From the NCBI RefSeq assembly GCF_044647545.1, contig NZ_CP172818.1: a stretch of DNA of 64,000 nt, one strand, 5' to 3'. Shown here one piece after another: positions 403-3,716 of the stretch. Each line of letters starts with the position of its first letter. Positions within the stretch are counted from its first letter, which is position 1. This stretch comes from Escherichia coli (GTDB lineage Bacteria > Pseudomonadota > Gammaproteobacteria > Enterobacterales > Enterobacteriaceae). The notes below the pieces were generated by a model, which was not told the origin of the DNA, did not search any database, and saw only the letters and a program-made list of their open reading frames with translations. A program made the position numbers and the translations under genes.

Positions 403-2427
<2,025 letters not shown>

Positions 2428-2435
2428 TCAATGCT

Positions 2436-2457
2436 AAAAACCCCCGACAAGCGGGGG
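2436..2457 (-). terminator. putative intrinsic terminator downstream of zipA
   Basis: Hairpin cccccg-acaag-cggggg at 2441-2457 preceded on the + strand by AAAAA (a T-run on the - strand), between zipA stop and ligA start. Confidence 0.45.
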
Positions 2458-2488
2458 TTCGAAAAGGAGTTAATTTGCCTTAAGTGTA

Positions 2489-3487
2489 TCAGGCGTTGGC
2501 GTCTTTGACTTCGCGGATGATGTCCTGGTACTCGCGCAATTTCTGCGGAGTCATCATACGGCGCTGATCGTCAAGCACTACACCGCCCACTTCATCGGCA
2601 ATATGCTGCGCAGATTGCAGCATTAGCTTGAAGTTCTGCAGCTCGTCACCGTAAGACGGTACCTGCATAAAGATAGTGACACCCGGAGTAGTGAAATCCT
2701 TCATTTCAGGATCAAAGGTTCCCGGTTTCACCATATTCGCCAGGCTAAATAACGCCGGGCCGCTGCCATCCGGGCTAAGATGACGATGGTAAATATTCAT
2801 ATCGCCAAAAATGAAGCCCGCTTGTTGAATGCTGTTAAGAAGCAGTTCACCGTTTAGCTCGCTACCGTGATGCGCCGCGACGTTCATGATAATCACCGCT
2901 TCTTTGCGCTTCGGTTTATCCATAACTGGAGCCGGTTCCGCTACAGGCTCAGGCTGTGGTGCCGCTACAGGCTCTGCAGGCTGGAAAGCCTGTTGTGCCG
3001 GTTGCGGTGCTGAATGCACTGGCTGCGGCGCTGATGCGACCTGTGGCGAAACTGGCTGCTGCAACGGCTGTTCAGGCTGCGGCTGATAGGCAGGCTGCTG
3101 CACGGGTTGCTGCACCGGCTGCGCTGGACGCGGAGCATGTTGCGGCGGTACCTGAGCTTCAGGCGGCTGCTGGACCGGTTGACGCGGCTGCGCAGACGCA
3201 TAAGGCGGTTGGTACTGGTGTTGCGGCGACGGACGAGCAGCCTCATGCTCCTGGGCGTTAGCCGGGGCATGATTCACGCGGTGAACTCGAACCTCACCAA
3301 CGCCCTCATCATCTTCGACATCCTCGTCATAAGAATCGTCGTCACGTTTTGACTTCATTCGTTTTAATGGCCGATCGCGGAACATAGAAGATCGTTCTTT
3401 ACGGCTGGTCCAGAAACCATGTACCAGTAAAGCGATTATGGCGATCGCGCCAACAATGATTAATATCAGACGCAAATCCTGCATCAT
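2489..3487 (-). CDS. zipA: cell division protein ZipA (FtsZ membrane anchor), about 332 aa
   Basis: ORF track 2489..3538; true start taken at [26 protein letters not shown] (N-terminal TM helix), followed by a long P/Q-rich linker and the conserved C-terminal FtsZ-binding domain. Confidence 0.93.
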
Positions 3488-3716
3488 TATATTCTCTGTT
3501 GTTCTAACACCTTGCCACCACGGCAAACATTTACTCACTAAGAGTATTTGCCGATTACCTCAAGTGCAAGTGCACTATTAACTTTCACAGCACAAAGATA
3601 GATGAAATCGTGCTTTTTGCTGTTTTTTCGAACATATCCTAACTGTCCATTGCGCAATTACCCGGTAAAATACGCAGAATTTTCCTGGGATTGGTCAAAA
3701 GGAGCTCATCCTGATT

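Follow-up and report, generated by a model that had tools for sequence, protein, structure and literature searches.

A common natural length variant of the P/Q-rich linker of ZipA in Escherichia coli and the probable loss of a repeat copy in the K-12 lineage

In the 64,000-nt stretch of Escherichia coli DNA analysed here (the window), a preliminary description had put the cell-division protein ZipA at about 332 aa when read from an MMQDL start, against 328 aa for E. coli K-12, and had attributed the difference to a long linker built of degenerate P/Q-rich units. This raises the questions of whether the linker in the window really is longer, how widespread the longer form is, and in which lineage the length changed. 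Translation from MMQDL gave exactly 332 aa, and RefSeq uses the same start. The K-12 length given there also was correct: K-12 zipA is 987 nt and encodes 328 aa (WP_001300494.1), and the same length, with a PQ domain at residues 86-185, is given in PMC6904479.

The zipA coding sequence, read on the minus strand, takes up 999 nt with its stop codon (2489..3487); the ATGATG (MMQDL) start is at 3487 and the stop at 2489. Several comparisons identify the product as ZipA. The TIGR02205 equivalog (septum_zipA) scored 416.5 bits (cut-off, 119.65) and was covered over positions 1-284 of 284, and Pfam PF04354 (ZipA_C) matched aa 198-321 with 156.8 bits (cut-off, 23; E = 3e-46). The full-length 328-aa chain of PDB 9iue aligned with the window protein from end to end (1-332 to 1-328), and the C-terminal domain chains of PDB 1f46, 1f47, and 1f7w aligned with aa 189/193-332 at E = 1e-91 or better. 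The protein begins with a single transmembrane anchor (aa 7-28; 3404..3469, minus strand), a hydrophobic stretch whose limits were taken from PMC6904479, followed by a charged region; residues 1-105 are the same as in K-12 ZipA. Next comes the P/Q-rich linker (aa 86-189, equivalent to K-12 residues 86-185 plus 4; 2921..3232, minus strand), defined by composition and again by the limits in PMC6904479. The globular FtsZ-binding domain (aa 189-332; 2492..2923, minus strand), delimited by PF04354 and the alignments with PDB 1f47 and 1f7w, completes the protein. From the identity of this domain to that of K-12 we infer that ZipA of the window recognises the C-terminal peptide of FtsZ and anchors the Z-ring at the membrane. 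The gene order is ligA (403..2418, minus strand), zipA, and then cysZ, cysK, ptsH, and ptsI on the plus strand. The arrangement of a divergent cysZ followed by zipA and ligA is the standard E. coli layout and is conserved among enterobacteria, in agreement with the RefSeq annotation of matching genomes. The feature is thus the ordinary essential cell-division gene zipA.

The mechanical open reading frame of zipA reaches upstream to a GTG at 3538 (349 aa); the MMQDL start is the RefSeq choice in every zipA allele inspected. Between the GTG and MMQDL (3488..3538, minus strand), the frame is open for 17 codons. The same peptide also is in frame in three other Escherichia species, and 13 residues of it are present in E. 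albertii. This stretch is probably a conserved 5' leader and not coding sequence. At the other end of the gene, in the interval from the zipA stop (2489) to the ligA start (2418), the minus strand has a hairpin rich in GC at 2436..2460 (CCCCCG-CTTGT-CGGGGG, then TTTTT), which resembles an intrinsic terminator just downstream of zipA. It folds as a clear stem-loop (centroid, -14.9 kcal/mol), with a z-score of only -1.36 relative to shuffled sequences, and it was not reported by a consensus terminator scan.

DNA and protein alignments of the window zipA with that of K-12 revealed one length difference, a 12-nt in-frame (4-aa) indel. The lengths therefore did not match, as the preliminary description had anticipated, and its placement of the difference in the P/Q linker was borne out, since the indel falls at a VQQP-VQQP pair. 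In the window, this pair is encoded at 3092..3115 by GTGCAGCAACCC followed by GTGCAGCAGCCT, and K-12 has one copy. The first copy, GTGCAGCAACCC (gene nt 373-384; 3104..3115, minus strand), is the one absent from K-12, or an equivalent register of the alignment; the second copy, GTGCAGCAGCCT, is at gene nt 385-396 (3092..3103, minus strand). Ten of the 12 bases agree between the two copies, and the two mismatches leave the amino acids unchanged. The window codons read CAG CCG, GTG CAG CAA CCC, GTG CAG CAG CCT, GCC TAT, and those of K-12 read CAG CCG, GTG CAG CAG CCT, GCC TAT. Besides the 12-nt gap there were 12 single-base differences, two of them nonsynonymous and both in the linker: R120 of the window is H in K-12, and S152 is P in K-12 (residue 148 of that protein). 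Residues 190-332 were identical among all of the E. coli ZipA alleles compared, K-12 included.

In order to determine how common the longer form is, 5,426 complete E. coli genomes were surveyed. Whole-gene zipA matches were obtained in 5,425 of them; the remaining "complete" genome had no zipA match at all. Among the whole-gene matches listed, 999-nt alleles extended down to 98.4% identity with the window, and 987-nt alleles appeared from 97.7% downward. Two junction probes were used, neither of which has a 28-mer in common with the other allele. The long-specific 52-mer matched 2,067 genomes (1,381 at 99% identity or more), and the short-specific 46-mer matched 3,045. A 309-nt linker query gave 2,392 records at 95% identity or more with no gap and 3,033 records at 90 to 95% with the 12-nt gap. 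Taken from these probes and identity bands, the class shares are approximately 44% long (about 2,390 records) and 56% K-12 length (about 3,030); some 300 long-class genomes were missed by the exact-seed junction probe, presumably owing to nearby SNPs, and about 35 records span less than 80% of the linker query, some of them being rare length alleles. Long alleles are carried by O157:H7, O158:H23, ST131, and many clinical isolates, and short alleles by K-12, W3110, DH1, BL21(DE3), and O111:H8. The window protein is RefSeq WP_001317975.1 (332 aa), an entry assigned to many E. coli genomes, among them FDAARGOS_497 and O158:H23 CFIAFB20140388, and its DNA is 100% identical to that of FDAARGOS_497 and 99.2% identical to that of O158:H23. 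Other 332-aa alleles are those of O157:H7 (WP_001299866.1) and ST131 (WP_001296279.1). The 332-aa zipA is an ordinary, already annotated natural variant and is not new. The survey, which the preliminary description had suggested, upheld its view that the difference is natural variation.

That description had further stated that the DNA encoding the linker, estimated at about 2900-3250 and close to the actual 2921..3232, is internally repetitive. The protein motifs it named are real. P makes up 30% of residues 86-189, Q 25%, and A 15% (55% P plus Q), and the stretch contains three QPVQQ, three APQP, and two PQPE motifs. For the DNA, the claim held in part. Tandem Repeats Finder detected no tandem array in 2400..3600 at a minimum score of 30. 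A repeat search of the linker revealed short degenerate families only, e.g., 28-mers of 64 to 75% identity at spacings of 12, 39, or 60 nt, and a 17-mer pair of 94% identity at a spacing of 24 nt. Among these elements are two imperfect 24-nt units in tandem that encode EPVAAPQP and EPVAEPAP (2927..2974, minus strand; repeat family with spacing 24) and the direct repeat TTGCAGCAGCC (3054..3064, minus strand), whose partner GTGCAGCAGCC at 3093..3103 lies 39 nt upstream in gene orientation. When the linker codons were shuffled 2,000 times as a null, repeated 6-mers proved to be in excess (129 pairs versus 81 +/- 16; p of about 0.014, with 1.35% of shuffles reaching the observed value). For repeated 8-mers the numbers were 25 versus 14 +/- 6 (p of about 0.06), and enrichment of repeated 8- to 12-mers was unclear, with 6 to 12% of shuffles reaching the observed value. 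An equal length of DNA from the C-terminal domain contained no repeated 8-mers. Thus, short degenerate repeats and a 6-mer excess are present, but there is no tandem array and the codon shuffles are exceeded only marginally; the repetitiveness comes mostly from the P/Q/A composition and is weak beyond that. Microhomology is abundant in the linker DNA mostly because of its amino acid composition. Two 101-aa open reading frames also were noted in alternative frames within the linker DNA (2956..3261, plus strand; 2965..3270, minus strand); they most likely are by-products of GC-rich, stop-poor P/Q coding.

Further length alleles were found among the complete E. coli genomes by searches with outgroup linkers and by inspection of low-ranking matches (loci L002, L022, L024, L025, L021, L007, and L023). 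On the long background, EM10-18-28 (1 of 5,426 genomes) encodes a 295-aa ZipA after a 111-nt deletion bounded by two CAGCAGCC repeats, N39 and N47 encode 325 aa (-21 nt), and VTB96929v and five others (6 of 5,426 genomes) encode 340 aa through a 24-nt insertion that supplies a third EPVAAPQP unit. On the short background are EM03-18-08 (310 aa; -54 nt) and PSJ-23 (321 aa; -21 nt). Two alleles have a mixed background, combining the R120 of the long form with the P of K-12 at the S152P site: TUM13936 (315 aa) and MS14386 (341 aa), which relative to the 328-aa form have lost and gained 39 nt, respectively. In all seven of these rarer alleles the indels are in frame, lie inside the linker, and end in direct repeats of 6 to 11 nt, and all of the alleles are annotated as intact coding sequences. 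The TUM13936 deletion and the MS14386 duplication involve the same repeat pair, (G/T)TGCAGCAGCC, 39 nt apart (the TTGCAGCAGCC/GTGCAGCAGCC pair of the window), and the two are reciprocal products. Natural linkers thus span -37 to +9 residues relative to the window allele (ZipA of 295 to 341 aa). One further record, the 50-kb "plasmid" NZ_CP098226.1 of Z0117EC0005, carries cysK-cysZ-zipA-ligA, and each of these genes is annotated with a frameshift; the record looks like a chromosomal contig with many errors that was submitted as a plasmid and not like a case of plasmid-borne zipA.

We next considered whether K-12 lost the 12 nt or the lineage of the window gained them. Outgroups were collected with a DNA-pattern scan based on a peptide pattern of the C-terminal domain, taking one genome per species, and this yielded four Escherichia (loci L003 to L006), a thin sample that lacks E. 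fergusonii, Shigella representatives, and Salmonella. E. albertii ZipA is 331 aa and has two copies at the site, the second degenerate. SCPM-O-B-8794 (L004) has 320 aa and two copies of QPVQQP, Escherichia sp. E1V33 (L005) has 326 aa and three copies of QPVQQP, and Escherichia sp. MOD1-EC7003 (L006) has 321 aa and one copy. Every length difference across the 19 Escherichia zipA alleles falls within the linker, and the C-terminal domains of E. albertii and MOD1-EC7003 differ from that of E. coli at one residue, aa 215. In both SCPM-O-B-8794 and E1V33, the upstream copies carry CAG/CAA CAA and the last copy carries CAG CAG, and the window has the same order. The single copies are of different types, CAG-CAG in K-12 and CAG-CAA in MOD1-EC7003, and the latter therefore would reflect a loss separate from that of K-12. 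The repeat unit is 18 nt (QPVQQP) in the outgroups versus 12 nt in E. coli, which indicates that the VQQP site has changed more than once.

A neighbour-joining tree of 15 E. coli alleles and the four outgroups was built over 820 ungapped columns. In this tree, the six 328-aa alleles, which are 0 to 3 SNPs apart, group in one clade that sits within the 332-aa alleles; the latter differ by up to 12 SNPs and are paraphyletic. The nearest neighbours of the 328-aa clade are the O157:H7 and O158:H23 alleles. Because of this nesting and the CAA-then-CAG pattern in the outgroups, K-12 most likely is the form that lost a copy. From this small sample of 15 E. coli alleles and four outgroups, we conclude with fairly good confidence that the two-copy, 332-aa state is ancestral and that the K-12-type lineage carries one 12-nt deletion.

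These observations suggest how the variants could have arisen. Owing to its Pro/Gln/Ala-rich coding, the linker DNA has many short imperfect direct repeats, and replication slippage or unequal recombination between them may occasionally insert or delete complete codons. Since a shift of frame would abolish the essential C-terminal domain, only in-frame events would survive; in all nine of the E. coli zipA alleles examined, the lengths differ by multiples of 3 nt and the coding sequence is intact. Because the tether tolerates changes in length, such alleles could drift to high frequency. The window would then have kept the ancestral two-copy VQQP-VQQP form (332 aa), and K-12 and its relatives would carry the derived 12-nt deletion (328 aa). 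The preliminary description had called slippage-driven length variation plausible, and the indels have the form expected of it, being bounded by short direct repeats. Slippage as the mechanism remains plausible, and we put it no more firmly because the linker DNA is not strikingly repetitive. Overall, the explanation that we favour, and consider probable, is that the window carries a major natural length allele of a disordered P/Q tether that is subject to repeat-mediated indels, with the deletion on the K-12 side.

The converse, that the extra 12 nt are a tandem duplication derived in the lineage of the window and that the one-copy state of K-12 is ancestral, is unlikely on balance. A 12-nt tandem duplication is a simple product of slippage, and MOD1-EC7003, the nearest outgroup by SNP distance (13 to 20 differences), has one copy; however, that copy is of the CAA type and the K-12 copy is of the CAG type, so that they look like different losses. 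The two copies in the window, moreover, differ at two synonymous positions in an order shared with two other Escherichia species, and the diversity and paraphyly of the 332-aa alleles, set against the single tight clade of 328-aa alleles, also speak for a loss. An error of sequencing or assembly in the window is a different matter. Repeat regions can be misassembled, but nothing specific points to this here; the frame is preserved and the exact junction is found in 2,067 independent complete genomes, which rules out error as the source of the extra 12 nt and makes its probability negligible.

It also could be proposed that the linker is a hypermutable repeat tract in which the 328/332 difference recurs by slippage, so that the allele says little about ancestry. 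E. coli has at least seven other independent linker alleles, and Escherichia species differ in copy number, but the site consists of just two imperfect copies in which no tandem array was detected, all sampled short alleles fall in one SNP haplotype clade, and among the whole-gene matches listed the long (98.4 to 100%) and short (97.4 to 97.7%) alleles separate cleanly. The other alleles are rare where counted (1 and 6 genomes for two of them). We regard recurrence as very improbable, and the 328/332 split appears from the haplotypes to be stable and haplotype linked and not a frequently switching tract. A phase-variable contingency locus was rejected on the absence of a tandem array at score 30, the 10/12 identity of the copies, indels in multiples of 3 nt, and the single 328-aa clade. 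Selection on linker length, in which the 4-residue difference would tune the reach of the tether and the Z-ring-membrane spacing by E. coli lineage, is if anything slightly less probable than recurrence. Both alleles are frequent, each of them persists across large lineages, and natural ZipA lengths stay within 295 to 341 aa; yet deep population structure alone would be expected to give this frequency pattern, viable isolates tolerate deviations as large as those described above, and four residues are about 4% of a linker of about 100 residues that PMC6904479 describes as an unstructured flexible tether. In the literature collection searched, no paper tied ZipA linker length to a phenotype.

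The favoured reading, a natural length allele of a tether with the deletion in the K-12 lineage, bears on function as follows. The linker joins the membrane anchor to the FtsZ-binding domain as a disordered tether, the disorder being taken from PMC6904479, which cites Ohashi et al. 2002 for the flexible PQ domain and which itself favours a more compact state under the conditions it used. It is unlikely that the step between 328 and 332 aa affects function, because the difference is such a small part of the tether and natural deviations are far larger; the 332-aa allele is presumably neutral. The same literature collection likewise yielded no paper on natural variation in ZipA length or on linker length in relation to function. 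Were the linker instead an evolvable tether whose length is maintained at the 328/332 split by lineage-specific selection and not by drift, which we judge as improbable as selection on length itself, in-frame indels (295 to 341 aa) would adjust the Z-ring-to-membrane spacing or the reach of ZipA.

The practical weight of the 332-aa variant is little. Nevertheless, K-12 ZipA numbering after about residue 124 is offset by 4 in about 44% of E. coli, O157:H7 and ST131 included, and K-12 ZipA most likely is a derived, shortened form and not the species norm. The intact natural alleles also amount to free natural mutagenesis, indicating that the P/Q tether of an essential protein tolerates substantial changes in length. 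This tolerance agrees with the flexible-tether model.

Compared with K-12 ZipA (328 aa; PDB 9iue and 1f46/1f47), the window protein has the same anchor, charged region, P/Q linker, and globular domain and differs in its extra VQQP, R120 (H in K-12), and S152 (P in K-12). From RefSeq WP_001317975.1 it does not differ at all and is a member of that already catalogued allele. The ZipA proteins of other Escherichia species have, as in the window, an almost invariant N-terminal 105 residues and C-terminal domain, with a varying number of (Q)PVQQ(P) units at this linker site; they differ from the window in the 18-nt QPVQQP unit, present in one to three copies, in extra linker deletions, and in more substitutions. 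The C-terminal linker of FtsZ is disordered and of low complexity, and its length differs from taxon to taxon while the folded or binding modules on either side stay conserved. Although it belongs to a different protein, it resembles the ZipA linker in being a length-variable disordered spacer.
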